Positions 36,692 to 56,373 of a stretch of 64,000 bases of DNA are shown here, piece after piece. The notes below the pieces were generated by a model. It was given only the letters and a program-made list of their open reading frames with translations. It did not search any database and was not told the DNA's origin. The DNA lies in NCBI RefSeq assembly GCF_004321985.1, contig NZ_SCQN01000009.1, forward strand, positions 25,033-89,032, given 5' to 3'. Positions within the stretch are counted from its first letter, which is position 1. Every line of letters starts with the position of its first letter. Made by a program: the position numbers and the translations under genes. The stretch comes from Castellaniella sp. (GTDB taxonomy: Bacteria; Pseudomonadota; Gammaproteobacteria; Burkholderiales; Burkholderiaceae_B).

Positions 36692-36719
36692 AGCCCACCC
36701 AACTCTTATCGGTACAACC

Positions 36720-37652: not shown

Positions 37653-37671
37653 CCGGGGCTGCACACCCACC

Positions 37672-38685
37672 ATGACACCGCGCCAATTCATCGGCATCGA
37701 CTGGGGTACCAGCTCCATGCGGGCCTATCTGTTTGCCGATGATGGCCGGGTGCTGGACAGCCGCGAGGCCGGCTGGGGCGTGATGAACCTCCCAGTCGCC
37801 CCTGGATCCGACCCCGGGGACCGGGAAAGTCGATTCGCACGGGCATTTTGGGAGCTGCTGGGCGATTGGCTGGGGCAACCCGGCACCTGCCGGCGTGTCA
37901 TGGCCTGCGGCATGGTCGGCAGCAATCAGGGCTGGCGGGAAGCCGGCTACATCGGCGTTCCTGTCGCCCTCATGGACATCGCAGGGTCGCTCACCGAAGT
38001 CGACGCTGGCCAAGGCGTCACCCTGGCGATCACCCCCGGCCTGCTCCAGCAAGGCGCGCTGCCCGACGCGATCCGCGGTGAAGAAACGCAGATCGCGGGG
38101 GTACCGGCGCTGCTCGCCCAAAAGGGCACCGACATGCAGGGATGCTGGCTGCTGGGCTTGCCGGGCACACACAGCAAATGGGCCGCCGTCCAGGCTGGGC
38201 GGATCCTGCGCTTCGATACCTTTCTGACCGGCGAGCTCTATAGTCTGCTGGTGCAGCACAGCATCCTGGGCCGGACCATGGGCGACACAGTGCTGGCGCC
38301 GGATAGCGACGAATCGCGACAGTCCTTCATGCTGGGCGTGCGCAACGCCACGACCGACATCGGCCGCAAAGGGCTGCTGGGGACGATCTTCAGCAGCCGC
38401 ACCCTGTCACTCACCGGGCGCCTCACCGGCCCCGAGCAGCGCGAATATCTGTCAGGTCTGCTGGTGGGGTACGAGCTCCAGGGCCTGCTTGCCAGCCTGC
38501 AGGACGAATGGCGCACGGCGCGCATCGCGCTCGTCGGCCGGCCCGGCCTCTGCCTGCGCTACCATGAGGCTCTGCAGGAACTGGGGCACTCGGCCGACGT
38601 GCTGTCGGAGGACGCCGGCATCCACGGCCTCTGGTCCCTCATCCAGCACGCCGCCGCGCGCACGGCACCCACCGGGAGGCACTGA
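37672..38685 (+). CDS. dgoK: 2-dehydro-3-deoxygalactonokinase
   Basis: IGIDWGTSSMRAY, GMVGSNQGWREA, RGEETQ, LPGTHSKW, TGELY. Confidence 0.92.
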   Translation: MTPRQFIGIDWGTSSMRAYLFADDGRVLDSREAGWGVMNLPVAPGSDPGDRESRFARAFWELLGDWLGQPGTCRRVMACGMVGSNQGWREAGYIGVPVALMDIAGSLTEVDAGQGVTLAITPGLLQQGALPDAIRGEETQIAGVPALLAQKGTDMQGCWLLGLPGTHSKWAAVQAGRILRFDTFLTGELYSLLVQHSILGRTMGDTVLAPDSDESRQSFMLGVRNATTDIGRKGLLGTIFSSRTLSLTGRLTGPEQREYLSGLLVGYELQGLLASLQDEWRTARIALVGRPGLCLRYHEALQELGHSADVLSEDAGIHGLWSLIQHAAARTAPTGRH

Positions 38686-38686
38686 A

Positions 38687-39334
38687 ATGAACGAGCAGAC
38701 GCTGAAGCAGCACTTCCTGGCACAACTGGACGCAACCGGACTGGTCGCCATCCTGCGGGGCATCCGGCCCAATGAAGTACGGGCCATTGGCACGACACTC
38801 TACAAGACGGGTTTTCGCCTCATCGAAATCCCGCTGAATTCTCCGAATCCGCTGCGCAGCATCGAACACCTGGTGGCGGAGCTTCCGCCCGATACGCTGG
38901 TGGGTGCCGGAACGGTCATGACGCCCACCCAGGTCGCCAACGTACATGCCGCTGGCGGCCGGCTGATCGTGATGCCGCATTCGGACCCACAAGTCATCCG
39001 CGCCGCCGCCGATGCCAACCTGATCGTGCTGCCCGGCGTGGCAACGCCGACGGAAGCCTTCGCCGCACTGGCGGCTGGCGCCACGAGCCTGAAAGCCTTT
39101 CCGGCCGAACTGCTGACCCCCACCATCGTGAAGGCGTGGCGGGCCGTGCTGCCGCACGATATCCGGCTCCTGCCGGTGGGCGGCATCACCCCCGACAAAC
39201 TCCAGGCCTATCTGGAAGCCGGCGCCTCCGGGTTCGGATTGGGCGGTGCGTTATACCGCCCGGGAGACACGGCCGAAAAGGTCCGGCAGAACGCTCAGGC
39301 GTTCATGTCAAAGTGGCAACAGGTGAGGAAGTAG
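38687..39334 (+). CDS. dgoA: 2-dehydro-3-deoxy-6-phosphogalactonate aldolase
   Basis: LVAILRGI, IEIPLNSP, GAGTV, PGVATPTEA, KAFPAE, PVGGI. Confidence 0.92.
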   Translation: MNEQTLKQHFLAQLDATGLVAILRGIRPNEVRAIGTTLYKTGFRLIEIPLNSPNPLRSIEHLVAELPPDTLVGAGTVMTPTQVANVHAAGGRLIVMPHSDPQVIRAAADANLIVLPGVATPTEAFAALAAGATSLKAFPAELLTPTIVKAWRAVLPHDIRLLPVGGITPDKLQAYLEAGASGFGLGGALYRPGDTAEKVRQNAQAFMSKWQQVRK

Positions 39335-39367: not shown

Positions 39368-40327
39368 TCAGGCAGGCGCCAACAGATGATTTCGCGCCGC
39401 ATCGATCAGCAATTGCACGACGGCGGTCGTGGTCCCCGTCTTGCGCGTGACGATGCCATAGGTATCGGCGGGGATCTTCAGGTCAATGGGCAGAATGCGG
39501 ATCAGCCCGACCGACGTAAACATGTCGGCCACCTCCGTTGGCAACAACGCAGCCGTATCGACGCTGTTTCCCAGGATGGCCACCGTCACGAAGGTCGAGT
39601 CGGTCTCGATGAAATTCGCCGACAGCGACAGTCCAGCAAGATTCATTTCCTTTTCGAGCAGGATGCGCAACGGCATTCTTCGGGGATACACCACCCAACG
39701 GAAGTCGCGCAGCTGCGCGAACGACATCTCACCGGCGACTTCGGGATGCCGACTGCCGACCACGACCGAAGTCGGCTCCCCGCTCACGGGGTAGTAGCTG
39801 TATTCGTAAGGTTCGGCACTCACGCCCGGCCGACCGATCATCAGGTCGATCCGCCCGTCGTCCAGCAGTTTCAGCAGATGACTGCTGGTGCCCTCGATGA
39901 TCTCGACGGACAGATTGGGATATGCGGCGCGCAGGCTGGCCAGCGCCGACACCAGAACGCGCGGAACCGCCCCCATGATGGTCCCGATCACCAGACTGCC
40001 GCCGGCCCCCGAACGAATGTCTTGCACCTCGCGGCAGAAATAAGTGAGCTCCGACGAAATGAGGGTGGCATACCGGATGGCGCAATGCCCCATGGCATTG
40101 GGCACCAGACCGGCACGCGTCCGCTCGAACAGCGTCACACCCAGCATGCCCTCGATTTCCTGAAGGGCCTTGCTCGCGGCGGACTGGGTCATGAACATGG
40201 CGGCCGCCGCCTTGCGCAGCGACTTGTGTTCGTCCAGAGAGATCAGCAACTGCAGTTGCTTGATCCTCAGCTTGCTGACCACAGCCTTCAGCACCCGGTC
40301 CGCGTCATTCATGATTGTCATGGTCAC
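39368..40327 (-). CDS. LysR-family regulator (GbpR-like)
   Basis: KLRIKQLQLL...SLRKAA...TQSAASK HTH; similar to the 558-1541 LysR. Confidence 0.92.
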   Translation of the reverse strand: MTMTIMNDADRVLKAVVSKLRIKQLQLLISLDEHKSLRKAAAAMFMTQSAASKALQEIEGMLGVTLFERTRAGLVPNAMGHCAIRYATLISSELTYFCREVQDIRSGAGGSLVIGTIMGAVPRVLVSALASLRAAYPNLSVEIIEGTSSHLLKLLDDGRIDLMIGRPGVSAEPYEYSYYPVSGEPTSVVVGSRHPEVAGEMSFAQLRDFRWVVYPRRMPLRILLEKEMNLAGLSLSANFIETDSTFVTVAILGNSVDTAALLPTEVADMFTSVGLIRILPIDLKIPADTYGIVTRKTGTTTAVVQLLIDAARNHLLAPA

Positions 40328-40402: not shown

Positions 40403-41221
40403 TCAGGCTACCGTGCGATAGGCGGCGGGTACCCGGGCGATCCGCCGAGAGATGGCGTCGCAGGCGGCACGCAACGGCGCCACATAGGCCTGCTGCGGAT
40501 CCGGGCGCTGGCGGAAGCGCAGGGTGCTGACGCTGACCGCCGCCACCGGCCGGCCGCTGGCGTCCACGATGGCGGCCCCGAAGCAGAAGATCCCCTCTTC
40601 GTTTTCCTCTTCGTCCTGGGCCCAGCCGCGCGCCCGGATGCCGCGCAGCTGCTCGCGCAGCGCCTCGGCTGAGTCCACGGTATTGGCGGTATATCGGGGA
40701 AACTCCAGGCGCTGCAGGATCTGTTCGCAGGTCGTCTCGTCCAGCGTCGCCAGATAGGCCTTGCCGACTGCGGACGAATGCATGGACACGCTCGAACCGA
40801 CGCGCGAAGCCATGCGGACTGCACTGGGGCTTTCGAGCTTCTCGATATAGACCATCTTTCGATCGTCGGGCACGGCCAGATGGACCGTCTCGCCCGTCGC
40901 GTCCCGCAGCGCCGCCAGATCCACGACGGCCAGGCGCCGCAGTTCGGACTGTTCCCAGCTGCGGCTGGCGAATTCGATCAAGCGCGGCCCCAGCACATAG
41001 GTCTTGTCGGCAAGGCTTGCCGCCAGCAGGCGTTCGGCCACCAGGCCGGCCACCGTGCGATAGACCGTCGCGCGCGGGTAGCCGCTCAGGCGCACGAGTT
41101 CGGTAACCGAGCAGGGGCGGTCGCTTTCGGCGACCAGCTGCAGCAGATGAACGAACTTGGAGAACGCCGCCGTTCCGGCCGGCCGGGTGCGCAACGAAGG
41201 ACCGCGATCAGGAAGTGTCAT
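40403..41221 (-). CDS. IclR-family regulator
   Basis: HTH YPRATVYR, GETVHL, HSSAVGKA, GWAQDEEE. Confidence 0.93.
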   Translation of the reverse strand: MTLPDRGPSLRTRPAGTAAFSKFVHLLQLVAESDRPCSVTELVRLSGYPRATVYRTVAGLVAERLLAASLADKTYVLGPRLIEFASRSWEQSELRRLAVVDLAALRDATGETVHLAVPDDRKMVYIEKLESPSAVRMASRVGSSVSMHSSAVGKAYLATLDETTCEQILQRLEFPRYTANTVDSAEALREQLRGIRARGWAQDEEENEEGIFCFGAAIVDASGRPVAAVSVSTLRFRQRPDPQQAYVAPLRAACDAISRRIARVPAAYRTVA

Positions 41222-41233: not shown

Positions 41234-41953
41234 TCAAGCGACCAAGTATCCACCGTCCACCGGAAGAATGACCCCTGTCATGAAAGCCGCGGCTGGGGCG
41301 CACAGGAAGGCCACGCACCCGGCCACATCTTCAGGAGTCCCCCAGCGGCCCAGCGGCGTGCGGGAAAGAATCGGTTCCGATCGGACAGGGTCGTCCTGCA
41401 ATGGCTGGGTCAGCGGCGTCGCGATCCAGCCCGGGGCCACCGCATTGACGCGGATGCCGTCCTCTGCATAAGCCAGCGCCAGGGACTTGGTGAGTTGCGC
41501 CACGCCACCTTTGCTCGCTGCGTAGCCGGGCACCCTCGCACCGCCAAAGAAGCTCAGCATCGAAGCCATGTTCACGATCACACCGTGCGAGGCCTTGAGC
41601 AAGGCGCGTGAAGCACTGCACAGGCGCATGGTGCCAGTCAGGTTGACCGCCAGCACCTTCTCGAACACATCCACCCGATGCTCGGCACCTCTGCGAATGA
41701 TGCCGGCACAGTTGACCAGGATGTCCAGGGAATCGATCTGCTCGAACAGGTTTCGCGTGGACGCCTCGTCGCTGATATCCGCCACCACCACGCGAATTCC
41801 CGGTGCCAGGGAGCCGTCGCCGGCATCCAGCCCCACAGCCGTGACACGGGCGCCAAGCGAAGCGAGGCAATTCGCCACGCCCGCCCCGATCCCCTGGGTC
41901 GCGCCGGTCACCAGCGCATGCTTACCCGAAAACAGATTTTCTTGAAACGTCAT
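41234..41953 (-). CDS. SDR oxidoreductase (KduD-like)
   Basis: TGATQGIG, NCAG, YAASKGGV..LTKSLA, APGWIAT. Confidence 0.88.
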   Translation of the reverse strand: MTFQENLFSGKHALVTGATQGIGAGVANCLASLGARVTAVGLDAGDGSLAPGIRVVVADISDEASTRNLFEQIDSLDILVNCAGIIRRGAEHRVDVFEKVLAVNLTGTMRLCSASRALLKASHGVIVNMASMLSFFGGARVPGYAASKGGVAQLTKSLALAYAEDGIRVNAVAPGWIATPLTQPLQDDPVRSEPILSRTPLGRWGTPEDVAGCVAFLCAPAAAFMTGVILPVDGGYLVA

Positions 41954-41986: not shown

Positions 41987-43039
41987 TCAATCTCCGGGAA
42001 ATTCGAGCCCGTACTCGTGTGCGCAGGCGTCCAGCATCGGTGCGATCGACGGATGCAGCAGAACTCCGTCACGCTCCTGTTCCCGTTTGCGCGCGACACC
42101 ACGGTCCCCGGGCATGCGCACTGGCGCACCGCCCGGCCGGGGAGGATTCGCCCGACAGGCATCTCCCAGCCAGTCGGTCTGGCGCGTGAAGCCCGCCAGC
42201 CCGCCGAAGGCCTCGGGATCATACAACGACAGGAATACCGTGGCACCCCAGCCCTCGGCAGGATCCGCACGGCCGTGAGCGGCCAGTCCGCCCGTCAGTG
42301 CCTCGATCAGCACCGCCAGCGCGAAGCCCTTGTGTCCGGCATCGGTCCCGCCCAGCGGCAGAATGGTCCCGGGTGGATCGGCGGCCAGCACGGCGGGATC
42401 GGTCGTCGGCTGGCCCTGGGCGTCTTGCAAGCAGGCATAGTCGAACTGCCTGCCGGCCTTGTGCATCCGGCTGCTCATGCCGTTGGTCACGAGCGAAGCC
42501 GAAATATCGATCAGGAACGGGCTTCCAGAGGTCGGGATACCCGCCGCAATCGGGTTGGGCGTGAACACGCCTCGCGTGCCGCCAAACGGCGCCACGCTAC
42601 CGTGATCAGGATCGGAGCTGGCCAGCACCATTACCAGCCCTTGCTCGGCCGCCCGCAGCAGATAGGCGGCCAGGCAAGCGATATGGTGGCTGCGGCGGAT
42701 CACCAGCGTGGCGCTGCCGTACTGCCGGGCCCTGGGTTCCAGCACCCGCATGCCCTCGCGCACCAGCCAGGGCCCTGGCAGACGCCGGCCATCCCAGCAC
42801 AGTGCTGCGCCACGATCCGAAATCACTGCGGGCGCGCCGGACGCCGTCATGCTGCCGCTGCGCAGCTCCCGGACGTAGGGAGCCAACAGCGCCAGCCCGT
42901 GCGTGTCGTGACCCAGCAGGTCGCCCTCGACCAGCACGTCGGCAACGTCGCGCGCCTTGTCTTCCTGCAGGCCGGCGGCCTGCAGCAGGCGCCCGGCGAA
43001 GCGTCTGAGGATTTCTGCCGGAATGCGTTCGGAAGCCAT
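41987..43039 (-). CDS. Ldh_2 (malate/L-lactate/ComC/YiaK-type) oxidoreductase
   Basis: GDLLGHDTHG, SHHIACL, FTPNPIA, HKGFAL, RMPG; start overlaps the upstream stop. Confidence 0.88.
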   Translation of the reverse strand: MASERIPAEILRRFAGRLLQAAGLQEDKARDVADVLVEGDLLGHDTHGLALLAPYVRELRSGSMTASGAPAVISDRGAALCWDGRRLPGPWLVREGMRVLEPRARQYGSATLVIRRSHHIACLAAYLLRAAEQGLVMVLASSDPDHGSVAPFGGTRGVFTPNPIAAGIPTSGSPFLIDISASLVTNGMSSRMHKAGRQFDYACLQDAQGQPTTDPAVLAADPPGTILPLGGTDAGHKGFALAVLIEALTGGLAAHGRADPAEGWGATVFLSLYDPEAFGGLAGFTRQTDWLGDACRANPPRPGGAPVRMPGDRGVARKREQERDGVLLHPSIAPMLDACAHEYGLEFPGD

Positions 43040-43794
43040 CAATACGTCGCCCTTCCACCCGAAATGTCGAAGGTGCCGCCTGTCGTGAACGAGCAGTCGG
43101 CGGACGCGAGCCAGGCCACCAGAGCGGCGACTTCCTCTGTCTGGCCAAACCGCCCCATGGGGATCTTGGACAACATGTAATCGATGTGCTGCTGCGTCAT
43201 CTGCGAGAACATCGCGGTGTGCACGGCCGCCGGCGTGATGCAATTGACCGTGACGCCCGTCTTTGCAAGTTCCTTGCCCAGAGACTTGGTCAGCGCGATC
43301 ACGGCGGCCTTCGAAGCACTGTACGCCGATGCGTTCGGGTTGCCTTCCTTGCCGGCGATGGACGCGATGTTGACGATGCGGCCGTATCGGCTGGACACCA
43401 TGCCCGGCGCCAGCGCGCGGCAGGTCAGGAAGGTGCCGCGCAGATTGATCGCCATCACCAAATCCCAGTCCTTGACCGAATAATCGCAGACGGTCATGTT
43501 CGGCCCGGTGATCCCGGCACTGTTGACCAGGATCTGGACGGCGCCACCGGCCTTTTCGGACTGTGCGGTGGCCGCAGCCACCGAGGTCTCGTCGCTCACG
43601 TCGACCGAGACGACGTGGACCTGTCCCGTCTTGAACCCGGCGCGCGCCTGCTCCAGCACATCCGCATTGCGGTCCCACAGGCTGACGACAGCGCCACCAT
43701 CGACCAGCTTGTGCGCAATGGCCAGCCCGATGCCGGACGCGCCCCCGGTCACGACAGCGTGCTTACCGGAAAAGTTGTACTGATTCCCTGCCAT
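43039..43794 (-). CDS. SDR, LRA5-like (2-keto-3-deoxy acid-sugar 4-dehydrogenase-like)
   Basis: TGGASGIG, SAGITG, ASIAGKEGNPNASAYSASK, SFTTGGTFDISGGRATY resembles recalled Sphingomonas LRA5. Confidence 0.8.
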   Translation of the reverse strand: MAGNQYNFSGKHAVVTGGASGIGLAIAHKLVDGGAVVSLWDRNADVLEQARAGFKTGQVHVVSVDVSDETSVAAATAQSEKAGGAVQILVNSAGITGPNMTVCDYSVKDWDLVMAINLRGTFLTCRALAPGMVSSRYGRIVNIASIAGKEGNPNASAYSASKAAVIALTKSLGKELAKTGVTVNCITPAAVHTAMFSQMTQQHIDYMLSKIPMGRFGQTEEVAALVAWLASADCSFTTGGTFDISGGRATY

Positions 43795-43862
43795 GATGAC
43801 TCCTGTCACTACACTTTGAATGATCGGTACCTACCGCACCGCAGCGGCTTGGCGCCAACTGG

Positions 43863-44621
43863 TCAGCCGCGGCCCACGAACGGCATCTTGGTCGCCATGA
43901 CGGTGTGGAACAATACGTTGGCTTCCAGTGGAAGATTGGCCATATACAGCACTGACTGTCCGACGATGTCCACGTCCATGCGCGGCTCAACCGCCAGCGT
44001 GCCATCGGCCTGGGGCACACCCTCGGCCATGCGCGCCGTCATGTTGGTGGATGCGTTCCCGATGTCGATCTGGCCCACGGCGATGTCGTATTTGCGCCCA
44101 TCCAGCGACGCCGCCCGCGTCAGGCCCGATACCCCATGCTTGGTGGCCGTATAGGGCGCCGAAAACGGACGCGGCGCATGGGCCGATATGGAACCGTTGT
44201 TGATGATGCGCCCGCCCGGCGGGTTCTTTGACTTCATGACGCGGAAGGCCTCGCGGATGCACAGGAACATGCCGGTCAGGTTGACGTCGACCACCTGCTG
44301 CCACTGCGCCAGCGTCAGGTCTTCGAGCGGCACGGCGGGTGCGCCGCGCCCCGCATTGTTGAACAGCACGTCCAGCCCGCCGAAGTGCTGGACGCAGGTC
44401 TGGAACAGGCGCGCAACCGACTGCTCGTCGGTCACATCGGTGGGCACGGCCAGCGCCCGGTTGCCAGCGCCGGATTGCGCGGCCACCTCTTCCAGCGGTT
44501 CCGGCCGGCGACCCGCAAGCACGACGCGATAACCATCCGACAACAGGGCCCGCGCGGCCGCGCGGCCGACACCGGAACCCGCCCCGGTGACAATGGCGAT
44601 TTTCGAGCTTACAGAACTCAC
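43863..44621 (-). CDS. Short-chain dehydrogenase/reductase
   Basis: [17 protein letters not shown]; GTGA overlap with tctA stop, AGGAG RBS. Confidence 0.9.
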
Positions 44622-46108
44622 GCTGATCTCCTGGCGCGAACAAAGCGCAGAATAGTCGGTACGATCCAGATGGCCAGCGTGATGACGCCCAGCGTCCCGG
44701 CGATGGGCCGCTCAAAGAACGCGAGCAGATGCCCGTCGGCCTTGATGAGCGAGCTGACCAGATTGCTTTCCAGCATACCGCCTAGAATGATGCCCAGGAT
44801 GGTGGGTGCCAGCGGAAACCCATTTTCTTCCATCAGATACGCAATGACGCCGAAGGCCAGCGTCACACCCACATCAAACAGACTGTTGTTGATGGAATAG
44901 GATCCCACCAGGCAGAACAGCAGGATGAGCGGCATCAGGATGTTGCGGGGCACCTTCAGCACCGTGCGCGCCAGGCGGATGGCCCCATAGCCCAGCGGCA
45001 CCATCAGCAGATTGGCAAAGATGAAGATCAGGAAAATGGCGTACAGGGGGACCGCATTCTCGATGAAGATGGTGGGCCCAGGGTTGAGGTTCTTCATGTA
45101 CAGCACGCCAATGACGATAGCCGTGATGGAGTCCCCGGGGATCCCGAACACCAGCGCCGGAATCCACGCGCCGCCCAACGACGAATTGTTGGCCGAGCTG
45201 GCCTCCACGATGCCTTCGACGTAACCGGTGCCGAATTTTTCGGGTGTGCGCGAGAACTTCTTGCTGATGCCGTAAGAAATATAGGCCGCAATATCGGCGC
45301 CGGCTCCCGGCAGAGCGCCCACGACCACGCCCAGCACACTGCCGCGCACCACGGACATCGGGTACTTGATGATGACGCCGTACAGACCTTTGAAGATATG
45401 TCCGACGGTGGCGTCGATCTTCTGAAACCCATGGGCGCTGGTCACGGCATAGCGCAGGACCTCGGACACGGCGAACATCCCGACCATGATGGGAATCAGC
45501 GACAGCCCTCCCAGCAGATCCGGATTGTCAAACGTGAAGCGCGGATAACCCCCCGGGTTGTTCATGCCCACCGTGGTGGCGAACAGGCCGATCAGCAGCG
45601 ACACGAAGCCTTTCAACGGGCTTTCCGAAGCGATGAAAATGGCGCAAGTCAGACCCAGCAGCACCAGCCAGAAGTACTCGTAGGTCGAGAAGTCCAGTGC
45701 GAACTCGGCCAGAACCGGCGCAAAGAAAATCAGCACCAGAGTGCCGAACAAGCCGCCGATGCAGGACACGACCAGGCCCGCACCCAGCGCCCGTCCGGCC
45801 TCTCCCTTCATGGCCATGGCATGCGCCTCGTCGGTGTACGCGGCCGATGCAGGCGTACCGGGGATACGCAACAGGCAGCCGGGAAGGTCGCCCGAGAAAA
45901 TCGCCATCGCCGTCGCCGACACCATGGCGGCAATGGCCGGCACCGCTGGCATGAAGAATGTGACGGGGACCAGCAGGGCGACTGCCATGGTCGCGCTGAG
46001 CCCGGGTACCGCGCCGATGAACAGACCATAGATGGACGACAGCAGGACCACGACGATGACATAGGGGTCCGAAATCATGCCCAGAGCGGCAATAATGTGA
46101 TCAAGCAT
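44618..46108 (-). CDS. tctA: Tripartite tricarboxylate transporter large subunit
   Basis: [28 protein letters not shown]. Confidence 0.93.
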
Positions 46109-46125
46109 GGATCAGTCTCCGGCGG

Positions 46126-46596
46126 TCAGAGAAGTGGCTCGAGCAGGCCCCAGGACAGCGGCACATGCAGCAGGGAATAAAAACCATAGAAAATGATGAC
46201 GCCGCCCAGTGCAGCGATCACCACGGCCGGCACCGGCCGCACCCCGAACGCCAGGAACAGCACCAGCAAGAAGAAAACCGAGAAAACGACGAAGCCGATG
46301 CTGTCCGAGAACAGCATGTACATCACGATCATGATCGGCACCAGCAGGAACCGGAACACGCTGTGTGAACTGCGGAATTCGTTCGACAGCCGCAGCCATG
46401 CCGCGCGCGGCTGCGCCCTCAGGCCGTTGCGGATCAGAAAGAGGGAACAGATGATGAAGCCTGCGCCAATGACGCTGGGAAAGGCACGCGGTCCGAAATC
46501 CTGGCCCGGAATGACGGGAAAGGTCTGCGAATACAGTACGACGGCGATCCCGAAAATGGCCAGCAGGACCCCCGTTAAAACGTCACTGACTTTCAT
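46126..46596 (-). CDS. tctB: Tripartite tricarboxylate transporter small subunit
   Basis: 4-TM, GPRAFP, LHVPLSWG; located between tctC and tctA. Confidence 0.88.
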   Translation of the reverse strand: MKVSDVLTGVLLAIFGIAVVLYSQTFPVIPGQDFGPRAFPSVIGAGFIICSLFLIRNGLRAQPRAAWLRLSNEFRSSHSVFRFLLVPIMIVMYMLFSDSIGFVVFSVFFLLVLFLAFGVRPVPAVVIAALGGVIIFYGFYSLLHVPLSWGLLEPLL

Positions 46597-46617
46597 GCGA
46601 ATAATCCTTGGTTCAGT

Positions 46618-46642
46618 CCGGGCGGGTACGCGACCCGCCCGG
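46618..46642 (-). other. Perfect 10-bp intercistronic stem-loop after tctC
   Basis: CCGGGCGGGT-acgcg-ACCCGCCCGG. Confidence 0.7.
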
Positions 46643-46702
46643 CGTCACCCGGCGGCACACCTCGAAGCGCACGGGCGCCGGGCAGCCGCCAGGTCCGGAA
46701 GA

Positions 46703-47674
46703 TCAGTCCTTGGCCAGACCCAGGGTCTTCATGATCTTGCCCATGTCCGCATCGCTTTTGGCCATGAAGTCAGCGAAGTCCTTGCCGCTGGCGTAGGCAA
46801 TGCCATACCCCTGCTTGGTCATGAAGTCCTTGTATTCCTGGCTGTGATTGATCTTGTCCAGAACCTTTTCGTATTTGGCCGCAATGTCGGCCGGCAGCCC
46901 CTTCGGAGCCACGATCCCGCGCCACGCGCCCATGGTCCAGTCGGAACCTGTCACCGATTTGAGCGTGGGCACATTCGGATACAGACCCGCCGGCTTGTCG
47001 GCCATGACCGCCAGAGGCTTGGCCTTGCCCGCATCGATCAACGAACGAGCCTCGGGCAGAGACACCGGAACCACGTCCACCCCACCCGCCACGAGCTCGA
47101 GCATGGCCGGCGCCGCCCCGTTCGAAGGCACCCAGCGGATGGCATCCGGCTTGATTTTCAGGCTGTTCAGCATGCCGGCCAGCGCGAGCTGCCAGATACC
47201 GCCTTCACCGGTCCCCGAAGCCTTCAGCTTGCCGGGGTTCGCCTTGGCGGCATCCAGCAGGTCCTGCAGCTTCTTGTACTTGGAGTTGGCGCCCACCGTC
47301 ACGCCCGAGGGATCGAAATTCATGAGTGCCAGCGGCGTGTAATCGCTGGGGGTCAGCTTGGTCAGCGCCATGTGGTGCTGCATGGAGATCTCGACCGAGA
47401 TCAGGCCGATGGTGTAGCCATCCGGCTTCGCGCCGGCCATGGCCTGATTGCCCACCACCCCATTGCCCCCCGGACGGTTGACCACGTTGACCGGCGTGCC
47501 CAGTTCCTTTTCCATTAGGCTGCCGATGATGCGCGCCGTGGCGTCCGTGCCGCCGCCCGGCGACCACGACAGCAACAACGTGATGGGCCGATTGGGCCAG
47601 GCCGCGCTGGCTGTCGCCGATACCATGGCCAGCACCGCGACCGCCGCCATTTTCGTCAAAGTGAATCGTTTCAT
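46703..47674 (-). CDS. tctC: Tripartite tricarboxylate transporter substrate-binding protein (Bug family)
   Basis: WPNRPITLLL..PGGGTD..AR, VNRPGGNG, PNVPTL; start MKRFTL with GGAG. Confidence 0.93.
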   Translation of the reverse strand: MKRFTLTKMAAVAVLAMVSATASAAWPNRPITLLLSWSPGGGTDATARIIGSLMEKELGTPVNVVNRPGGNGVVGNQAMAGAKPDGYTIGLISVEISMQHHMALTKLTPSDYTPLALMNFDPSGVTVGANSKYKKLQDLLDAAKANPGKLKASGTGEGGIWQLALAGMLNSLKIKPDAIRWVPSNGAAPAMLELVAGGVDVVPVSLPEARSLIDAGKAKPLAVMADKPAGLYPNVPTLKSVTGSDWTMGAWRGIVAPKGLPADIAAKYEKVLDKINHSQEYKDFMTKQGYGIAYASGKDFADFMAKSDADMGKIMKTLGLAKD

Positions 47675-47750
47675 TTGCTCCTCTCCCTTTTGTTGGTCAT
47701 GAATAAAACACACTACTGACTACCAACTGCCGTCTGCCACACAACCACGC

Positions 47751-48488
47751 TCAATAGGTCGCGCGCCCGCCGGACAGATCAAAGACTGCACCCGTGCTGA
47801 ATGTGCAGGAATCCGAACACAGCCAGGCGACCAGTTCGGCCACCTCCTGGGGTTCACCCAGCCGCTTCATGGGGCTTTTGTCTATCATGGTCTGTACGTG
47901 CTGGGGCGTCATCTGATCCAGCAGCGACGTCCGGACCGCGGCGGGAGCAATCGCATTGACCAGGATTCCGGTTTCGGCGAGCTCCTTCCCCAGTGATTTG
48001 GTGAGAGCAATGACGCCGGCCTTTGACGCGCTGTAGGCCGACGAATTGGGGGTCCCTTCCTTTCCCGCCAGCGAAGCAATGTTCACGATCCTGCCCGATT
48101 CTGCCCGGCGCATGAGAGGCACCACGGTATGGCAGACATGGAACACGCCCAGCAGGTTGACCGAAATGATTCGCGCCCACTCTGTCGGGTCGAACGCTTC
48201 CAGCGAAACCGTGGAGCCCGAAAACCCCGCATTGTTGACCACAAAGTCCAACCGGCCATGGCGGTCCTGGACGGCCTGGGCCGCCCGCTCCACGGCCGAT
48301 CGATCAGACACATCGACCTGGGTAGCCTCGGGGTCGGACGGGTCAACCGCCAGATCCCAATTGCAAACAGTAGCGCCCGCCTGTTGCAGCCGCGTGCGGA
48401 TCGCCGCACCGATACCCGCGTTCGCACCCGTGACGACGGCCACCCGATCGGAAAAGTCGTAGACGGCCGTTCGGGGCGAGCGGGTCAT
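47751..48488 (-). CDS. SDR, LRA5-like (second paralog)
   Basis: TGANAGIG, NNAG, ASLAGKEGTPNSSAYSASK, FSTGAVFDLSGGRATY. Confidence 0.8.
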   Translation of the reverse strand: MTRSPRTAVYDFSDRVAVVTGANAGIGAAIRTRLQQAGATVCNWDLAVDPSDPEATQVDVSDRSAVERAAQAVQDRHGRLDFVVNNAGFSGSTVSLEAFDPTEWARIISVNLLGVFHVCHTVVPLMRRAESGRIVNIASLAGKEGTPNSSAYSASKAGVIALTKSLGKELAETGILVNAIAPAAVRTSLLDQMTPQHVQTMIDKSPMKRLGEPQEVAELVAWLCSDSCTFSTGAVFDLSGGRATY

Positions 48489-49018
48489 CGGATGAACTGA
48501 TCCACGTAGGTTTCGCCCAGACCGACCTCGGTGTAATGCGCCCTGCACATGGCGATCTTGGTGAAAACGTCCTCATAGCCGATGTTCTTGCCATATGGAT
48601 CGGTGTAGTACATGACGCCATTGACCTGGAAGAACGTAATCATTTCTTCGACGTCCGGCGGCACATACAGGGTGTGCGTCTCGCCAGGCGGTTCGAACAC
48701 ATAGCTGCCTTCGGCGGCCTCCCAGTCGTGTTCGAGATAGCGCCAGCGGCCCTTCAGCACGAAGCCATGGACGGGCTGCGGATGCCGGTGGCAGGCCAGC
48801 ACCCCCGAACGCCGAACCCGCAGCAAGTTGGTCCAATAGCCCTGGCCCGCATTGAGACACAACGGGCGGAACCAGACATTTTCGGCTTGAGGAACCCAGA
48901 TGCGCTCATCCGTCGGAATGGCATCGCCCACCACGATATCCGCCAACGCCTCACGTGGATTGACCCCCTGAAAAGGCAAGGGTTTCAACCCCGGGTCGAC
49001 AGACGATTTCTGGCCCAT
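48485..49018 (-). CDS. Cupin dioxygenase, 2,4'-dihydroxyacetophenone dioxygenase (DAD)/ChrR-like family
   Basis: DERIWVP, WFRPL, CHRHPQPVHGFVLKGRWRYLEH, EPPGETHTL (HxH...H triad). Confidence 0.85.
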   Translation of the reverse strand: MGQKSSVDPGLKPLPFQGVNPREALADIVVGDAIPTDERIWVPQAENVWFRPLCLNAGQGYWTNLLRVRRSGVLACHRHPQPVHGFVLKGRWRYLEHDWEAAEGSYVFEPPGETHTLYVPPDVEEMITFFQVNGVMYYTDPYGKNIGYEDVFTKIAMCRAHYTEVGLGETYVDQFIR

Positions 49019-49045
49019 TGGATGCTCCACAATGTGAACATATGA

Positions 49046-49058
49046 TCTACCATGTAGA
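49046..49058. promoter_or_regulatory. Candidate operator palindrome TCTAC-cat-GTAGA in AT-rich divergent promoter region
   Basis: 5-bp arms, 3-nt spacer, 28 nt upstream of the cupin ATG. Confidence 0.4.
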
Positions 49059-49207
49059 AAATGTTAAAAAGGAAGAGACCTTTCGGCTACTAGGGATTTC
49101 ACGAACGGCGCATCGCTCCGGCAGCACGGCCACGGCCGCGACACGACCACAACGATGTGCCAAGCCACAGAGCCGGACGGATCCGCCACCAGAGGACGGG
49201 AGACATC

Positions 49208-50149
49208 GTGAACGCAGTCGATCTGTATCGCTGGATGCTGACCAGCCGCCAGCTTGAGTCAGCCCTGAGCAGCAAGAATCCACGCTGGTTTTCGACGGAA
49301 GGTGAAGAGGCCACGATCGTGGGCGCCTTCGCGGGCATCCGCGAAGGCGACATCGCCGCCCCGCACTACCGGGGTCCGTTCGTCACCTACCTGATGCGCG
49401 GCGCCGACATGAAGCGGCTCGCCTGCCAGGCCTTCGGCAAGGCTGGCGGCTACAGCAAGGGCCGCTCGGTCCCCTTCATCGGGCCAGCCGCGCTGGGATT
49501 CGTCCCGTGGGTCGCCGGGGACCTGGGAACGTCGCTGGGCATCGCGACCGGCGCCGCGCTCGCGTTGCAGCGCAGCGGGCGGGGCGGCGTCTGCATCTGT
49601 TCGTTCGGTGACGGGACCTCGAATCGCGGCGATTTTCACGAAAGCGTCAATCTCGCAGCGCTCTGGAAGCTTCCCATCGTCTACGTCTGCCAGAACAACA
49701 GCTGGGCCATCTCCCAGCCGGCGCGCAGCTACCTCCCTGCCCCCATTGTCGAACGCGCAAAAGGCTATGGAATCCCGGGCATTGCGCTGGACGGCAACGA
49801 CGCAGAAGCCGTGCACGACGCGGTCACACGGGCCATGGCCCGAGCAGCTGAGGGCCAAGGCCCCACGCTGATCGAGGCCCGGACATGGCGTAAGGGCGGC
49901 CACTGGGCCAACGACAAGACACCTTACCGCACGGCCGCCGACGTCCCCGACCACCCGTGCGACCCGCTGGAACTCATGCGCCAGCGGTTGCTGGACCGAC
50001 GCGAGGCAAGCCCGGTCGATCTGGAACGGATGCGGGCCACCATCGCAGCTCAGGTAGACGCCGCCATCGAATACGCGGCGAACCAACCGGACGCAGGCGA
50101 GCCCGAATTCGGCCTGGACGAGGTCCTCGCGCAGACATCCCCGGCCTGA
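49208..50149 (+). CDS. TPP-dependent 2-oxoacid dehydrogenase E1 alpha subunit
   Basis: GTG start; GEEA, HYRG, SFGDGTSN...CQNN, GPTLIEA. Confidence 0.9.
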   Translation: MNAVDLYRWMLTSRQLESALSSKNPRWFSTEGEEATIVGAFAGIREGDIAAPHYRGPFVTYLMRGADMKRLACQAFGKAGGYSKGRSVPFIGPAALGFVPWVAGDLGTSLGIATGAALALQRSGRGGVCICSFGDGTSNRGDFHESVNLAALWKLPIVYVCQNNSWAISQPARSYLPAPIVERAKGYGIPGIALDGNDAEAVHDAVTRAMARAAEGQGPTLIEARTWRKGGHWANDKTPYRTAADVPDHPCDPLELMRQRLLDRREASPVDLERMRATIAAQVDAAIEYAANQPDAGEPEFGLDEVLAQTSPA

Positions 50150-50176
50150 AACGGTCATCCTTCATTCGAGGTCATC

Positions 50177-51211
50177 ATGGATCAGGTCAGGACTCAGGCT
50201 GGCACCGACACCACGGCCACTCGTCATCCAAGGCTCACCTTCGCACAAGCGGTGATCGAAGCCATCCGGCACGAAATGCGCGCGGACGACACCGTCTTCT
50301 ATCTCGGCCAGGACGTCGGGCCATTTGGCGGCGTGATGCAGGGCACACAAGGACTGTACGAGGAATTCGGTCCACAGCGGATTCTGGAGACTCCCATCAG
50401 CGAATCCGCCATGGCGGGCATCGGCCTGGGCGCCTCGTGCTTCGGCTGCAAACCGATCGTGGAGCTGAGCTTCGGGGAGTTCCTGCCGGCCGCCATGAAC
50501 CAGCTCATCAATCAGGCCCCCAACCTGCACTACATGACGGCAGGCGCCGTGTCGCCCCAGGTGGTCATCCGCACCCGCGCCGGCGACGGTCCGTACGGCG
50601 GCCACCCGCAGGATTATTCGGTCTGGTTCTGCCACGTCCCGGGGCTGAAGGTCGTGATGCCGGCCACACCGCCGGACGCCTACCAGCTCATGCGGGCGGC
50701 GATCCGGGACCCGGCGCCGGTGCTGTTCGTCGAACCCATGTCACTGTCGCACGGACGCCGCGAGGTGGTGGACCTGGACGCCACCGACGCCACATTGGGA
50801 AGCGCCCGAATCGCCCGCGCCGGAAGGGACCTCACCATCGTCGCCTACGGGTCCGAGCTTCCGCACGTCCTGCGGGCCGCCCAGCAGGCAGCCGAGGAAG
50901 GCGTGGACGCGGAAGTCATCGACCTGCGCTCCCTCGCGCCCTGGGACGAAGACACGGTCATCGGCTCGGTGCGTCGGACCGGCCGGTTGCTGACGGTCCA
51001 CGAAGCCTGGAAGGCCTTCGGACACGGAGCAGAAGTCATTGCACGGGTCATGGAAGTTCTGGGCGCGGAAGGCCGAACGGTCCGCGCCAGCCGGGTCGGG
51101 GCCAGACCCGTTCCCATCCCCAGCGGACCACTACGCAAACTCGCCCTGCCGACCTGGCAGGACATCCACACCGCCATCCTGCGGAGTGCGGGGATTGCGC
51201 CCCACTCCTGA
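50177..51211 (+). CDS. 2-oxoacid dehydrogenase E1 beta subunit
   Basis: GQDVGPFGG, ETPISE, GGHPQ, EVIDLRSLAPWD. Confidence 0.92.
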   Translation: MDQVRTQAGTDTTATRHPRLTFAQAVIEAIRHEMRADDTVFYLGQDVGPFGGVMQGTQGLYEEFGPQRILETPISESAMAGIGLGASCFGCKPIVELSFGEFLPAAMNQLINQAPNLHYMTAGAVSPQVVIRTRAGDGPYGGHPQDYSVWFCHVPGLKVVMPATPPDAYQLMRAAIRDPAPVLFVEPMSLSHGRREVVDLDATDATLGSARIARAGRDLTIVAYGSELPHVLRAAQQAAEEGVDAEVIDLRSLAPWDEDTVIGSVRRTGRLLTVHEAWKAFGHGAEVIARVMEVLGAEGRTVRASRVGARPVPIPSGPLRKLALPTWQDIHTAILRSAGIAPHS

Positions 51212-51229
51212 CCTGCCACGAATCACGCC

Positions 51230-51952
51230 ATGGAAAGTACCTTCAATCATGTGCCCATCGCCCGCCAATACAAGCTGTCGGGCATGCAGAAGTTCGTGGC
51301 CGAGCGCCTTGCGGCCAGCCTGCACGAGACAGCCAGCGTCACCGCCATGGCCGAGATCCCCATCCGCGGGCTGCTCGAGGCGCAGGCCGCCTGGCGTACC
51401 CGCGGGGTCGAAACCAGCCTCACCCACCACATGCTTCATCTGACGGCCCGTTGCCTGGAACGCCACCGGCCGCTGAACGGCACGCTGCACGAGGGCGTGG
51501 TCTACGAATATGGCCCGGTCAACCTGGCACTGGCCCTCTCCATGCCCAACGGCGACCTGCAGGCCGTGGTCATCCGCGATGCCAGTCAAAAGACCGTGGC
51601 GGATATCGCCGCAGAGACCGACACGCTGATCGGCCTCGCACGCGAGGGCGGGCTCGGGCTCGAACACGTCCGTGGCGGTACCTTCACGCTCAGCAACTAC
51701 GGCAGCCTCGAGCATACGGTCTGGGCCACGCCCATCATCCCGCCCGGGCAGTCCGGCGTGCTGGGCATGGGTCGCGCGCACCCCGGTCTGGTGGCGGACG
51801 ACAGCCCTCAGGGTTGGCATGTGGAAACCGTTCTTCCACTATCCTTCACCTATGATCACCGCGTCATCAACGGCGTACCTGCCGGGCATTTTCTCGAGGA
51901 TCTCGCAGACCTCATGATTCACGCTTCCACGGAGACCCCCCATGAACCATGA
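51230..51952 (+). CDS. E2 acyltransferase, catalytic domain only (no lipoyl or subunit-binding domain)
   Basis: Begins at LSGMQKFVAERL; GGTFTLSNYG, PIIPPGQ, DHRVING. Confidence 0.88.
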   Translation: MESTFNHVPIARQYKLSGMQKFVAERLAASLHETASVTAMAEIPIRGLLEAQAAWRTRGVETSLTHHMLHLTARCLERHRPLNGTLHEGVVYEYGPVNLALALSMPNGDLQAVVIRDASQKTVADIAAETDTLIGLAREGGLGLEHVRGGTFTLSNYGSLEHTVWATPIIPPGQSGVLGMGRAHPGLVADDSPQGWHVETVLPLSFTYDHRVINGVPAGHFLEDLADLMIHASTETPHEP

Positions 51953-52190
51953 ACATACCGTCACCCTGCCGGAACTGGCCAACGACTTCCAGTCCGGCAC
52001 ACTGGTTGCCTGGCGCAAGGCCGTGGGCGACTCGATCCAGCAGGGCGAGGTCATCGCCGAGATCATGACTGACAAGATCAACCTGGAAGTCGAATCGCCG
52101 CACGCCGGTATCGTCAAGACCCTTCTGGTCGAAGTGGACGATACTGTCAACGTCCACCAACCCATCGCCATCATCGAACAAGCCTACTGA
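51942..52190 (+). CDS. Stand-alone lipoyl-carrier protein
   Basis: 82 aa; W.KAVGD.I..GEVIAEIMTDKINLEVESPHAG; own GGAG RBS. Confidence 0.88.
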   Translation: MNHEHTVTLPELANDFQSGTLVAWRKAVGDSIQQGEVIAEIMTDKINLEVESPHAGIVKTLLVEVDDTVNVHQPIAIIEQAY

Positions 52191-52196
52191 ACCACC

Positions 52197-53375
52197 ATGC
52201 AAGCTCATCTCTCCCTACTCCCCGAAGACCATGAACAGGCCCTGCTCATCGGCCGCATTCACGACCCGCGCGACGAAGGTCCCAGCGTCGTGGCCATCCA
52301 GGGCCACGCGCTGCACGACCTGACACCGCACTTCCCCACCGTGTCGCAACTGCTCGAACAGCGCGACCCCGCCGCGATCGTGGCCCGCACCCCGGCCACC
52401 TCGCGATGGTCCCTGGACACCGTGATGCGCAGCACGCTGGACAACAACCGCACGGCGGCGCGCTTCGTCGCCCCCTGCGACCTGCAGGTCATCAAGGCCT
52501 GCGGGGTCACATTCGCCGGCAGCATGCTGGAACGCGTCATCGAAGAAAAGGCCGGCGGCGACCCGAAGCGCGCGACACAAATCCGCGACGAGATCGGCAA
52601 GGTCATCGGTTCAGCCGTCTCCAGCATCCGCCCCGGCTCTGACGACGCCTCACGAGTCCGCCAGTACCTCATCAAGGAAGGGCTCTGGTCCCAGTATCTG
52701 GAAGTCGGCATCGGGCCGGATGCCGAGGTTTTCACCAAGGCGCCCGTGCTGTCGGCCGTCGGTAGTGGCGAGGCGATCGGCATCCTGGCAGCCTCGAAAT
52801 GGAACAACCCCGAGCCCGAGCTGGTGCTCGCCGTGAACTCACGCGGCGAAATTCGCGGGGCGACGCTGGGCAACGACGTGAACCTGCGCGACATCGAAGG
52901 CCGCAGCGCGCTGCTGCTGGGCAAGGCCAAGGACAACAACGCTTCCTGCGCGATCGGCCCCTTCATCCGCCTGTTCGACGAACGCTTCACGCTGGACGAC
53001 GCGCGCCACATGGAACTGGAGCTGCATGTGACGGGCGACGACGGCTTCAGGCTGTCGGGTCACAGCTCCACCAGCCAGATCAGCCGTGACCTGACGGACC
53101 TCGCGGCCCAGACCTGCGGCCGGCATCACCAGTACCCGGACGGCTTCATGCTGTTCACTGGTACGCTGTTCGCCCCCACAGACGATCGCGACGCGCCGGG
53201 CCAGGGATTCACCCACAAGCTGGGCGATCTAGTGCAGATCCGCTCGTCCCGGCTAGGGGCGCTGGTCAACCGCGTCACCCACAGCGAAGACGCCCCGGCG
53301 TGGACCCAGGGCATCATCTGGCTCATGGCGAACCTGGCGCGACGCGGCCTGCTGGGGACTGCGGGCCCGCGCTAA
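52197..53375 (+). CDS. xylX: FAH-family 2-keto-3-deoxy-D-xylonate (D-KDP) dehydratase
   Basis: Close resemblance to recalled Caulobacter XylX: KACGVTFA, GLWSQYLEVGIGPDAEVFTK, WNNPEPE, NDVNLRD.EGRSALLL, HQYPDGF. Confidence 0.85.
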   Translation: MQAHLSLLPEDHEQALLIGRIHDPRDEGPSVVAIQGHALHDLTPHFPTVSQLLEQRDPAAIVARTPATSRWSLDTVMRSTLDNNRTAARFVAPCDLQVIKACGVTFAGSMLERVIEEKAGGDPKRATQIRDEIGKVIGSAVSSIRPGSDDASRVRQYLIKEGLWSQYLEVGIGPDAEVFTKAPVLSAVGSGEAIGILAASKWNNPEPELVLAVNSRGEIRGATLGNDVNLRDIEGRSALLLGKAKDNNASCAIGPFIRLFDERFTLDDARHMELELHVTGDDGFRLSGHSSTSQISRDLTDLAAQTCGRHHQYPDGFMLFTGTLFAPTDDRDAPGQGFTHKLGDLVQIRSSRLGALVNRVTHSEDAPAWTQGIIWLMANLARRGLLGTAGPR

Positions 53376-53390
53376 GGGCCGCGGGCCGTT

Positions 53391-54837: not shown

Positions 54838-54882
54838 GAATGCCACCCCTACCTTTAGCACTGAATGTGCGGTCATTCTATC

Positions 54883-54944
54883 TGGTCAAACCAATTGTTC
54901 AAATACTAGGGAAATCCATAACTGGTTTTACCGGTCAACCAATT
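54883..54944. promoter_or_regulatory. Candidate FadR (PdhR/LldR-type TGGT-N3-ACCA) operators
   Basis: TGGTCAAACCAATT (54883), TGGTTTTACCG (54923), CGGTCAACCAATT (54932) in the FadR/PAAT divergent region. Confidence 0.6.
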
Positions 54945-55004
54945 TAGACTATCGGGCACAGACGGTTCCATGGCCGCCTTCCGGTGGCAGACAGGTTCAC
55001 AACC

Positions 55005-55688: not shown

Positions 55689-55697
55689 GGCCGCCCC

Positions 55698-56351: not shown

Positions 56352-56373
56352 ATGACGACCCACGGAGCCTCAC

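Follow-up and report, generated by a model that had tools for sequence, protein, structure and literature searches.

The locus described here raises the question of whether a cupin can take the place of the FAH-family hydrolase that normally acts after dehydrogenases of the LRA5 type in the catabolism of acid sugars. In a 64,000-nucleotide stretch of a Castellaniella sp. genome (contig NZ_SCQN01000009.1, positions 25,033 to 89,032 of the forward strand; hereafter the window) a three-histidine cupin heads a minus-strand string of genes that contains four short-chain dehydrogenases/reductases (SDRs). The original prediction was that this cupin replaces the LRA6-type hydrolase and cleaves a diketo or ketol sugar acid oxidatively. 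Our results point to a somewhat different arrangement. More specifically, the cupin resembles 2,4'-dihydroxyacetophenone dioxygenase (DAD) with an altered pocket, its regular partner is an SDR related to KduD and not the LRA5-like SDR next to it, and most genomes that have the cupin keep an LRA6-like hydrolase as well.

Metal site and substrate pocket of the cupin

The cupin gene starts with an ATG preceded by GGAG, and the protein matches Cupin_7 (PF12973, E 1e-20). Its best solved relative is DAD of Alcaligenes sp. 4HAP (EC 1.13.11.41; 4P9G/5BPX), with E 1e-36 and 42% identity over 152 ungapped residues. The HRH...H triad noticed in the original prediction is indeed there, H77-R-H79 and H115 corresponding to H76, H78 and H114 of DAD. 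The DAD residues named in PMC4219425 were mapped onto the window cupin and 120 homologues (121 in all). The other catalytic positions are kept together with the histidines, Tyr93, Val82, Phe129 and Glu108 of DAD being Y94, V83, F130 and E109 in the cupin. These positions are invariant or nearly so among the homologues: the three histidines are invariant and V83 is found in 120/121. The distal side of the pocket is different. In DAD, Phe43 stacks with the ring of the substrate, Asp63 and Trp61 reach the phenol hydroxyl, and Tyr153 and Ser49 complete the pocket (PMC4219425). Only Trp61 is retained in the cupin (W62), so the aromatic pocket as such is lost; the remaining four positions are swapped (F43Q, S49F, D63N and Y153K, giving Q44, F50, N64 and K154) and the pocket has become polar and cationic. 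The swaps are also invariant or nearly so, with Q44 in 120/121 homologues and both N64 and K154 in all of them. Judged by these residues, the cupin is a member of the DAD family with a different substrate pocket, and the invariant Q44, N64, K154 and F50 would suit a polar anionic substrate.

His84 was considered as a fourth metal ligand and rejected, because it aligns with Phe83 of DAD, which lies at the dimer interface (PMC4219425); residues of this interface are altered in the window cupin (W53C, F83H). The site stays a bare 3-His site, since Val83 (DAD Val82) occupies the canonical Glu position of cupins. A bare 3-His site is a hallmark of cupin dioxygenases and is found also in the acetylacetone dioxygenase Dke1 and in cysteine dioxygenase, while in the cupin isomerases KduI and KdgF a Glu or Gln serves as fourth ligand. 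When the AlphaFold model of the cupin (pLDDT 87) was used in a Foldseek search, DAD came first (TM-score 0.87-0.90 to 4P9G/5BPX, 0.90 to 5BPX), followed by two uncharacterised cupins and then Dke1 (0.74). KduI was absent among the top 50 structural matches and KdgF appeared only at rank 28, with 13% identity.

The cupin and DAD thus agree in fold, length, 3-His iron site and second-sphere residues, and by analogy the predicted reaction is of the same type, O2-dependent cleavage of an alpha-hydroxyketone to two acids. They differ in the rebuilt distal pocket and in gene company, as the partners of the window cupin are sugar-acid-type SDRs, acid transporters and IclR and not aromatic catabolic genes. 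Dke1 (3BAL), the next characterised fold after DAD, is likewise a 3-His cupin that uses O2 to cleave a C-C bond beside a carbonyl, but it is only 20% identical and its substrates are beta-diketones.

At E <= 1e-10 the subfamily comprises 4458 database clusters, with 70-86% identity among the listed homologues. The named sources are alpha- and betaproteobacteria, and the named hosts are all aerobic or facultative Proteobacteria. The subfamily is present in about 13% of the sampled Burkholderiales and about 3% of the sampled Pseudomonadota. Within the DAD family the cupin represents a separate subfamily of very high conservation. The own genome contains a second Cupin_7 gene (contig C8:9341-9628, plus strand, about 150 aa, 90 bits with PF12973), which is too divergent from the window cupin for the own-genome search at E <= 1e-10. 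In genome G188 (L097:8742-10373) three Cupin_7 paralogues, 28-35% identical to the window cupin, stand in tandem and adjoin an SDR.

Conserved neighbours and the gene string of the window

The company of the cupin was studied in 80 genome loci with cupins of 72-82% identity, in which the window proteins were placed by tblastn. The open reading frame caller, which is based on GC3, missed genes in lower-GC loci, and therefore counts of neighbour families obtained otherwise than by tblastn are lower bounds. A gene of the same type as the KduD-like SDR of the window (SDR239) lies downstream of the cupin in 75/80 loci; of the five loci without it, two lie on contigs that are truncated, and in one the gene adjoins a second copy of the cupin. 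An IclR regulator is found in 60 loci and an acid transporter in 55, TctC in 27 and a major facilitator superfamily (MFS) protein of the D-galactonate-transporter type in 28. The LRA5-like SDR that follows the cupin in the window (SDRa) has a counterpart directly after the cupin, at most 120 bp downstream, in 36 of the 80; a counterpart of the second LRA5-like SDR (SDRb) is rare. Because an SDRa-type gene stands within 120 bp downstream in 36 of 80 independent loci, its coupling to the cupin is not a matter of chance. Homologues of the 392-aa FAH protein of the window (FAH392) occur in two loci, and an FAH hydrolase is absent from 78. Homologues of the Ldh_2 dehydrogenase also occur in two, a third being in the Cupriavidus basilensis locus (L005) beside a second cupin copy. 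Genes for E1/E2 were found in none of the 80, and no other enzyme family was found to recur around the cupin in these loci, the neighbour counts being lower bounds.

The pairing extends beyond close relatives. The SDR239-type gene still adjoins the cupin in other families and classes, where the cupins are 61-71% identical (L084-L088), although the order of the two genes varies. Of 250 Burkholderiales genomes, taken as one fixed sample, 32 have the cupin and 26 the SDR239-type gene; 23 have both, nine have only the cupin and three only the SDR. The odds ratio of this co-occurrence, uncorrected for phylogeny, is 183 (p 3e-22). The locus and genome counts together indicate that the conserved unit consists of the cupin and the KduD-like SDR, usually with IclR and an acid transporter, and that the LRA5-like SDRa is a frequent but optional accessory. 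The expected co-occurrence of the cupin with LRA5-like SDRs and TctABC was therefore borne out in part, by SDRa (36/80) and TctC (27/80), but the obligate partner is SDR239 (75/80) and SDRb does not take part regularly.

Two further layouts were noticed. In Cupriavidus basilensis (L005:4540-6852) there are two divergent, facing cupin copies, both about 80% identical to the window cupin; one heads TctC, SDR239 and Ldh_2, the other heads SDRa. In L088 (10549-11799, minus strand) an MRJP/SGL-like (major royal jelly/gluconolactonase-like) protein is located between a PfkB that resembles 2-keto-3-deoxygluconate (KDG) kinase and the SDR-cupin pair.

The string in the window consists of the following features:

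49025-49059, no strand assigned: tandem palindromes, candidate IclR operator (15-bp palindrome pair 20 bp apart)
48485-49018, minus strand: DAD-family 3-His cupin (Cupin_7), 177 aa (Pfam; DAD E 1e-36; model)
47751-48488, minus strand: SDRa, LRA5-like SDR, 245 aa; its start overlaps the cupin stop (ATGA, 48485-48488)
46703-47674, minus strand: TctC periplasmic binding protein (PF03401)
46126-46596, minus strand: TctB small membrane subunit (PF07331)
44618-46108, minus strand: TctA large membrane subunit (PF01970)
43863-44621, minus strand: SDR252, L-threonate 3-dehydrogenase (Ltn3D)-like SDR (9X6I/9XAX E 5.7e-83; 4DYV E 1.5e-103)
43039-43794, minus strand: SDRb, second LRA5-like SDR, 251 aa (9JVE E 2e-81; 6D9Y E 3e-79)
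41987-43039, minus strand: Ldh_2-family 2-hydroxyacid/2-oxoacid dehydrogenase, 350 aa (PF02615 E 1e-83)
41234-41953, minus strand: SDR239, KduD/gluconate-5-dehydrogenase-like SDR, the conserved cupin partner (TIGR01832 206 bits; 75/80 loci)
40403-41221, minus strand: IclR-family regulator (Pfam)
39368-40321, minus strand: LysR-family regulator at the tail of the string, membership in the unit uncertain (Pfam)

These closely packed, co-directional genes run from 49018 to about 40403, with the cupin as the first gene and intergenic distances of -4 to about 106 bp. No intergenic terminator-like sites were found on the minus strand of the string; the hits there are all intragenic. Gene spacing and the lack of such sites suggest that the string is co-transcribed. 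The original prediction rightly placed the cupin at the head of the operon, but its left border at 43039 was drawn too early, as the string continues through Ldh_2, SDR239 and IclR to 40403. The overlap of the cupin stop with the SDRa start was seen correctly (TGA at 48487-48485, ATG at 48488-48486, sequence CGATGACC), as was a second LRA5-like SDR downstream, SDRb at 43039-43794 being about 50% identical to SDRa and to 6D9Y/9JVE. Besides Ldh_2, the fourth SDR and IclR, it had left unmentioned that the SDR at 43863-44621 is of another, Ltn3D-like kind and that a 392-aa FAH-superfamily gene ends the divergent operon. Orthologues of the LysR gene at this position are confined to own-species contigs. 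The same gene arrangement is found in the public assembly GCA_040959955.1 and in two other runs.

Directly upstream of the cupin start the minus strand carries the palindromes TTCTACATGGTAGAT ... GTTCACATTGTGGAG, 15 bp each and 20 bp apart, and the cupin-proximal one overlaps the GGAG ribosome-binding site. The consensus GTCCAYAWTRTGGAC stands upstream of the cupin in most related loci, mostly as a tandem with 19-20 bp spacing. Of the 13 related loci in which the site was not found, most have no IclR nearby either. The tandem palindromes are a probable IclR operator. A wider IclR regulon was looked for with a position-weight-matrix scan of the own genome and discarded, as no second tandem at 20-bp spacing was found. 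The best NCBIfam matches of the IclR regulator are BhcR and KdgR, about equal and both below cut-off (KdgR 159.5 bits).

In the window string a conserved core is combined with an added block. The added genes, TctCBA, SDR252, SDRb and Ldh_2, are located between SDRa and SDR239, and this position puts the block under the same operator control.

Dehydrogenases and FAH proteins

SDRa and SDRb are 48-55% identical to 6D9Y and 9JVE; SDRb has 53-55% identity to both structures and 51% to SDRa. The structure 6D9Y is the closest one to the L-2-keto-3-deoxyrhamnonate 4-dehydrogenases (LRA5), at 51-54% identity (PMC11199699). Both SDRs of the window retain the C-terminal GGRATY motif and the Lys/Arg pair named in that paper (Lys209/Arg247 of 6D9Y). 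The idea that 6D9Y represents the Paraburkholderia phymatum orthologue of SDRa was rejected, because 6D9Y is a paralogue. SDRs of the LRA5 type have been shown to convert 2-keto-3-deoxypentonate (KDP) to 5-hydroxy-2,4-dioxopentanoate (PMC6336799). The operon has no L-rhamnose 1-dehydrogenase, lactonase, L-rhamnonate dehydratase or LRA6 hydrolase; sugar-acid dehydratases of unassigned specificity lie 10-15 kb away. For SDR239 the best NCBIfam model is KduD (TIGR01832), with 206 bits against a cut-off of 338.85; among structures it matches 4AVY with E 6e-65 and those of KduD with E 1e-42 to 5e-46.

The remaining dehydrogenases belong to the added block. SDR252 is found beside the cupin in this species only and carries a G-R-R NADP motif with paired arginines. 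Its relative 9X6I is PlLtn3D of Paracoccus litorisediminis, an NADP-preferring L-threonate 3-dehydrogenase which oxidises the 3-OH of C4-C6 sugar acids (PMC12994016). The likeness to Ltn3D lies in the match (E 6e-83) and the NADP arginine pair, and the products of Ltn3D are 3-oxo sugar acids with a -CO-CH2OH group; the operon genes, which were the ones searched, include no counterpart of the 3-oxo-tetronate kinase and decarboxylase that act after Ltn3D in the published pathway. The best NCBIfam match of the Ldh_2 protein is the YbiC-type model, below cut-off.

Does the cupin replace LRA6, the 2,4-didehydro-3-deoxy-L-rhamnonate hydrolase? The claim that the window lacks a small LRA6-type FAH protein was confirmed, as PF01557 (FAH) has its sole match there in the gene at 52197-53375, which encodes 392 aa. 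For whole genomes the replacement does not hold. The whole-genome search found an LRA6-like FAH gene at C61:128945-129802 (NF053535, 437 bits against a cut-off of 500), preceded by a homologue of L-KDFDH (8XWK, E 6e-103), the pair occupying C61:128150-129802. A second LRA6-like gene is located at C8:114808-115641 (59% identity). Among the 250 Burkholderiales, an LRA6-like gene is found in 29/32 cupin carriers and in 49/218 non-carriers. Since LRA6-like hydrolases are present in 29 of the 32 carriers and in the own genome, the cupin is an addition at genome level and not a replacement. In the own genome (C61:127065-129802) an IclR-like regulator is divergent from the KDFDH/LRA6-like pair and ABC transporter genes come after the pair; together they resemble a canonical unit of the hydrolytic Route III.

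When gene neighbourhoods are compared, there is one case in which the predicted swap is seen. In the cupin-less genome G515 (L124) an operon combines, in this order, a KDFDH-like gene, an LRA6-like hydrolase and an SDR239-like gene (56% identity). Here, and in one case only, cupin and hydrolase hold equivalent places beside the SDR239 family; the claim of a swap is thus upheld for the neighbourhood of a single genome but contradicted at genome level. The comparison with Route III (LRA5/KDFDH plus LRA6/FucG, for L-rhamnose, L-fucose and pentoses) gives a similar picture. The motifs of SDRa and SDRb, the scheme in which a 2-keto-3-deoxy acid is dehydrogenated and the chain then cut, and the SDR239 family member in the G515 operon are points of likeness, but the window unit has neither FAH hydrolase nor lactonase nor aldose dehydrogenase, and the cupin has the place beside the SDR.

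The 392-aa FAH gene (52197-53375) was considered as the missing C-C hydrolase and rejected, because it belongs to COG3970 and the group of KdaD-type KDP dehydratases. It matches 9KKT (E 3e-123) and 2Q18 (KdaD, E 3e-20) and has the build of about 390 aa with a C-terminal FAH domain. The COG3970 proteins of H. huttiense are KDP dehydratases (PMC6336799), and FAH392, by its COG3970 membership, is probably a dehydratase and not a C-C hydrolase. In the 250 Burkholderiales a COG3970 gene of the FAH392 type is present in 22/32 cupin carriers and 18/218 non-carriers (p 2e-13); wherever coordinates can be compared, it and the cupin are on different contigs or more than 50 kb apart. The correlation may reflect shared 2-keto-3-deoxypentonate metabolism, or general versatility alone.

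FAH392 closes the operon that is divergent from the string (49208-53375, plus strand) and consists of E1alpha, E1beta, a 240-aa E2 catalytic domain, a separate 82-aa lipoyl protein and the 392-aa COG3970 FAH protein. The operon is followed by a terminator-like hairpin at 53364-53387 and lacks a gene for E3. E1beta has orthologues (59% identity) in 2/250 Burkholderiales; in one of them, G406, the genes are arranged as lipoyl-E1a-E1b-E2cat, and cupin, SDRs and FAH are missing. The operon was considered as part of the pathway and rejected, because it is found beside the cupin in own-species contigs only and its orthologues in the two other genomes come without cupin or SDRs.

The wider window is a sugar-acid island, with sugar-acid clusters at 30150-39334 (plus strand) and 54076-62691. 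The left flank has LacI, an amino-acid-type ABC transporter, a UxaA/GarD-family dehydratase (35165-36691), a DHDPS-family enzyme, DgoK and a KDPGal-type aldolase. GntR, an ABC transporter, an enolase-superfamily dehydratase (57975-59255), an IlvD/EDD dehydratase (59426-61213) and a GlcD-like FAD oxidase (61279-62691) make up the right flank.

Proposed route and competing functions

The reading that we favour, with about as much confidence as doubt, is that the unit works in two steps, dehydrogenation by an SDR to a ketol or diketo acid and O2-dependent C-C cleavage of this product by the cupin. We infer its substrates, its use of O2 and its products as follows. An NAD-dependent SDR would act on an imported acid sugar or 2-keto-3-deoxy acid sugar and oxidise one of its secondary alcohols, close to the end of the chain; the enzyme would be the KduD-like SDR239, joined by the LRA5-like SDRa in 36/80 loci. 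The product would contain an alpha-hydroxyketone, as does 5-hydroxy-2,4-dioxopentanoate formed from 2-keto-3-deoxypentonate. Oxidation of KDG by an enzyme of the KduD type would give 2,5-diketo-3-deoxygluconate, and Ltn3D would give 3-oxo acids. All these compounds would end in -CO-CH2OH, the group that DAD binds. The Fe(II) 3-His cupin would then bind the ketol in the manner of DAD and cleave the C-C bond with O2 to two acids, possibly formate, glycolate or acetate together with oxaloacetate or 4-hydroxy-2-oxoglutarate. Aldolases of the Eda and RraA types and 2-hydroxyacid dehydrogenases, which are found in some loci, could process these products. In the window the added TctCBA, Ltn3D-like SDR, SDRb and Ldh_2 may feed further keto acids or handle 2-oxo/2-hydroxy acid products. 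Such a route would run parallel to the hydrolytic LRA5/LRA6 route and not in its stead. The wider claim is put forward tentatively, with somewhat more doubt than confidence: that this is a widespread "dehydrogenate, then oxygenate" branch, in which a DAD-like Fe(II) cupin under IclR repressor control uses O2 to cleave the terminal ketol of 2,4- or 2,5-diketo-3-deoxy sugar acids, alongside the FAH-hydrolase route.

Several observations weigh against such a route. Shared ancestry and a general versatility in the use of sugar acids inflate the genome-level co-occurrence of cupin and SDR, and the swap in G515 is a single case at 56% identity. LRA6-like hydrolases in 29/32 cupin genomes and in the own genome mean that an alternative cleavage step is not forced. 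Some alphaproteobacteria have the pair alone amid unrelated genes, which is odd for a catabolic route, and no formate-handling gene was found linked to the unit. Further such points come from the likeness of the unit to the KduI/KduD/KdgR system (5-keto-4-deoxyuronate isomerase, 2-keto-3-deoxygluconate 5-dehydrogenase and an IclR-type regulator), with which it shares the trio of a cupin, an SDR and an IclR-family regulator. The family nearest to SDR239 is KduD and KduD structures are among its best solved relatives, and the KdgR score of the regulator is 159.5 bits. In L087 a 2-hydroxyacid dehydrogenase is followed by an Eda-type aldolase, an RraA-like gene, a KDG/KDGal-kinase-like PfkB, the SDR and the cupin, and in L088 the order is PfkB, MRJP/SGL-like, SDR and cupin. 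Such arrangements would be expected of an isomerase-reductase route of the KduI/KduD type that leads to KDG. The PfkB is found in both L087 and L088 and the Eda-type aldolase in L087 only, and neither turned up in the 80 loci closest to the window.

The main rival explanation builds on these points: the cupin would do the work of KduI without being its orthologue, as a ketol isomerase that depends on a metal but not on O2, the KduD-like SDR would reduce its product to KDG, KdgK and Eda would finish the pathway, and IclR would have the role of KdgR. KduI is itself a cupin whose product bears the -CO-CH2OH group that DAD binds, and a PF04962 (KduI/IolB) gene is absent from the L087 and L088 genomes and from the own genome. 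This last point is offset by a PF04962 gene in 5/10 pair-bearing genomes; an anticorrelation of cupin and KduI was considered and set aside as uninformative, because of this count and because IolB confounds it. The window cupin matches Cupin_7/DAD and not PF04962, its fold ranks KduI and KdgF as described above, and it has Val at the fourth-ligand position of cupin isomerases while the DAD catalytic residues are invariant or nearly so. SDR239 and IclR stay far below the cut-offs for KduD and KdgR. No pectin, alginate or glycosaminoglycan lyase and no unsaturated-uronate hydrolase was seen among the annotated or clustered genes of about 95 cupin loci, in which not every neighbour is annotated. 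An isomerase-reductase pair would also leave the LRA5-like SDR without a role, and we regard it as improbable. A function close to that of DAD itself, in which the compound broken down is not a sugar acid but an alpha-hydroxyketone carboxylate, aromatic or derived from lignin, and the SDRs act on a benzylic or side-chain alcohol, is very improbable. The substrate of DAD is aromatic, a DAD-like gene is the most strongly lignin-fragment-induced gene in Novosphingobium MBES04 (PMC10866074), SDRs act as C-alpha dehydrogenases in lignin catabolism, and IclR regulators, ACS-type MFS proteins and tripartite tricarboxylate transporter carriers serve aromatic acids too. However, the MBES04 cluster has other partner genes, and Phe43, Asp63 and Tyr153 of DAD have given way to Gln, Asn and Lys throughout the subfamily (Gln in 120/121, the other two in all homologues). 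The SDR partners come from sugar-acid families (LRA5-like, KduD-like, Ltn3D-like), and among the neighbours there are sugar-acid dehydratases, kinases and aldolases while no ring-cleavage or aromatic-acid genes were seen.

A further explanation concerns the window string alone, namely that the juxtaposition of core and block is accidental, cupin-SDR239-IclR and TctCBA/SDR252/SDRb/Ldh_2 serving unrelated substrates and sharing only a promoter, so that SDRb and the Ltn3D-like SDR would have nothing to do with the cupin. The block is missing from the other 77 of the 80 loci, and the adjoining E1/E2 operon has its orthologues in 2/250 genomes, there without cupin or SDRs. Its TctCBA is orthologous to that of a Polaromonas metagenome-assembled genome (L016; 68-73%, TctC 68%) and not to the usual TctC of cupin loci (about 35% for most of them). 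On the other hand, the block sits inside the conserved unit, its genes being closely spaced or overlapping with no terminator-like site between them, hence behind the same operator. In L016, TctCBA-SDR-SDRb-Ldh_2 recurs in another order, upstream of cupin-SDR239-IclR and with a FAH392 homologue before it; SDRb and Ldh_2 are 69% and 70% identical to their orthologues there. In L005 an Ldh_2 gene (51%) follows SDR239. Three independent joinings, in the window, L016 and L005, suggest a functional tie of the block or of Ldh_2 to the cupin unit, and we consider an accidental juxtaposition rather unlikely.

Among the papers searched, none ties a DAD-like cupin to sugar acids and none describes 9JVE, 9KQ1 or 9KKT. 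In thousands of genomes, members of the DAD family bear the name of one aromatic reaction, which neither the pocket nor the gene company of this subfamily fits. If the proposed route is true, the cupin would have the first aliphatic sugar-acid substrate of the DAD family, a widespread annotation would be corrected and a compact three-gene module would become available for biotechnology. Cleavage of keto sugar acids with O2 would add a fourth fate of 2-keto-3-deoxy acids to those set by aldolase, dehydratase and hydrolase, and would be a new exit from this node of pentose, deoxyhexose and hexuronate catabolism, leading directly to oxaloacetate. If the cupin is instead an isomerase, the KduI step would have been solved in a third, unrelated way. 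In both cases a conserved orphan gene pair would gain a function.

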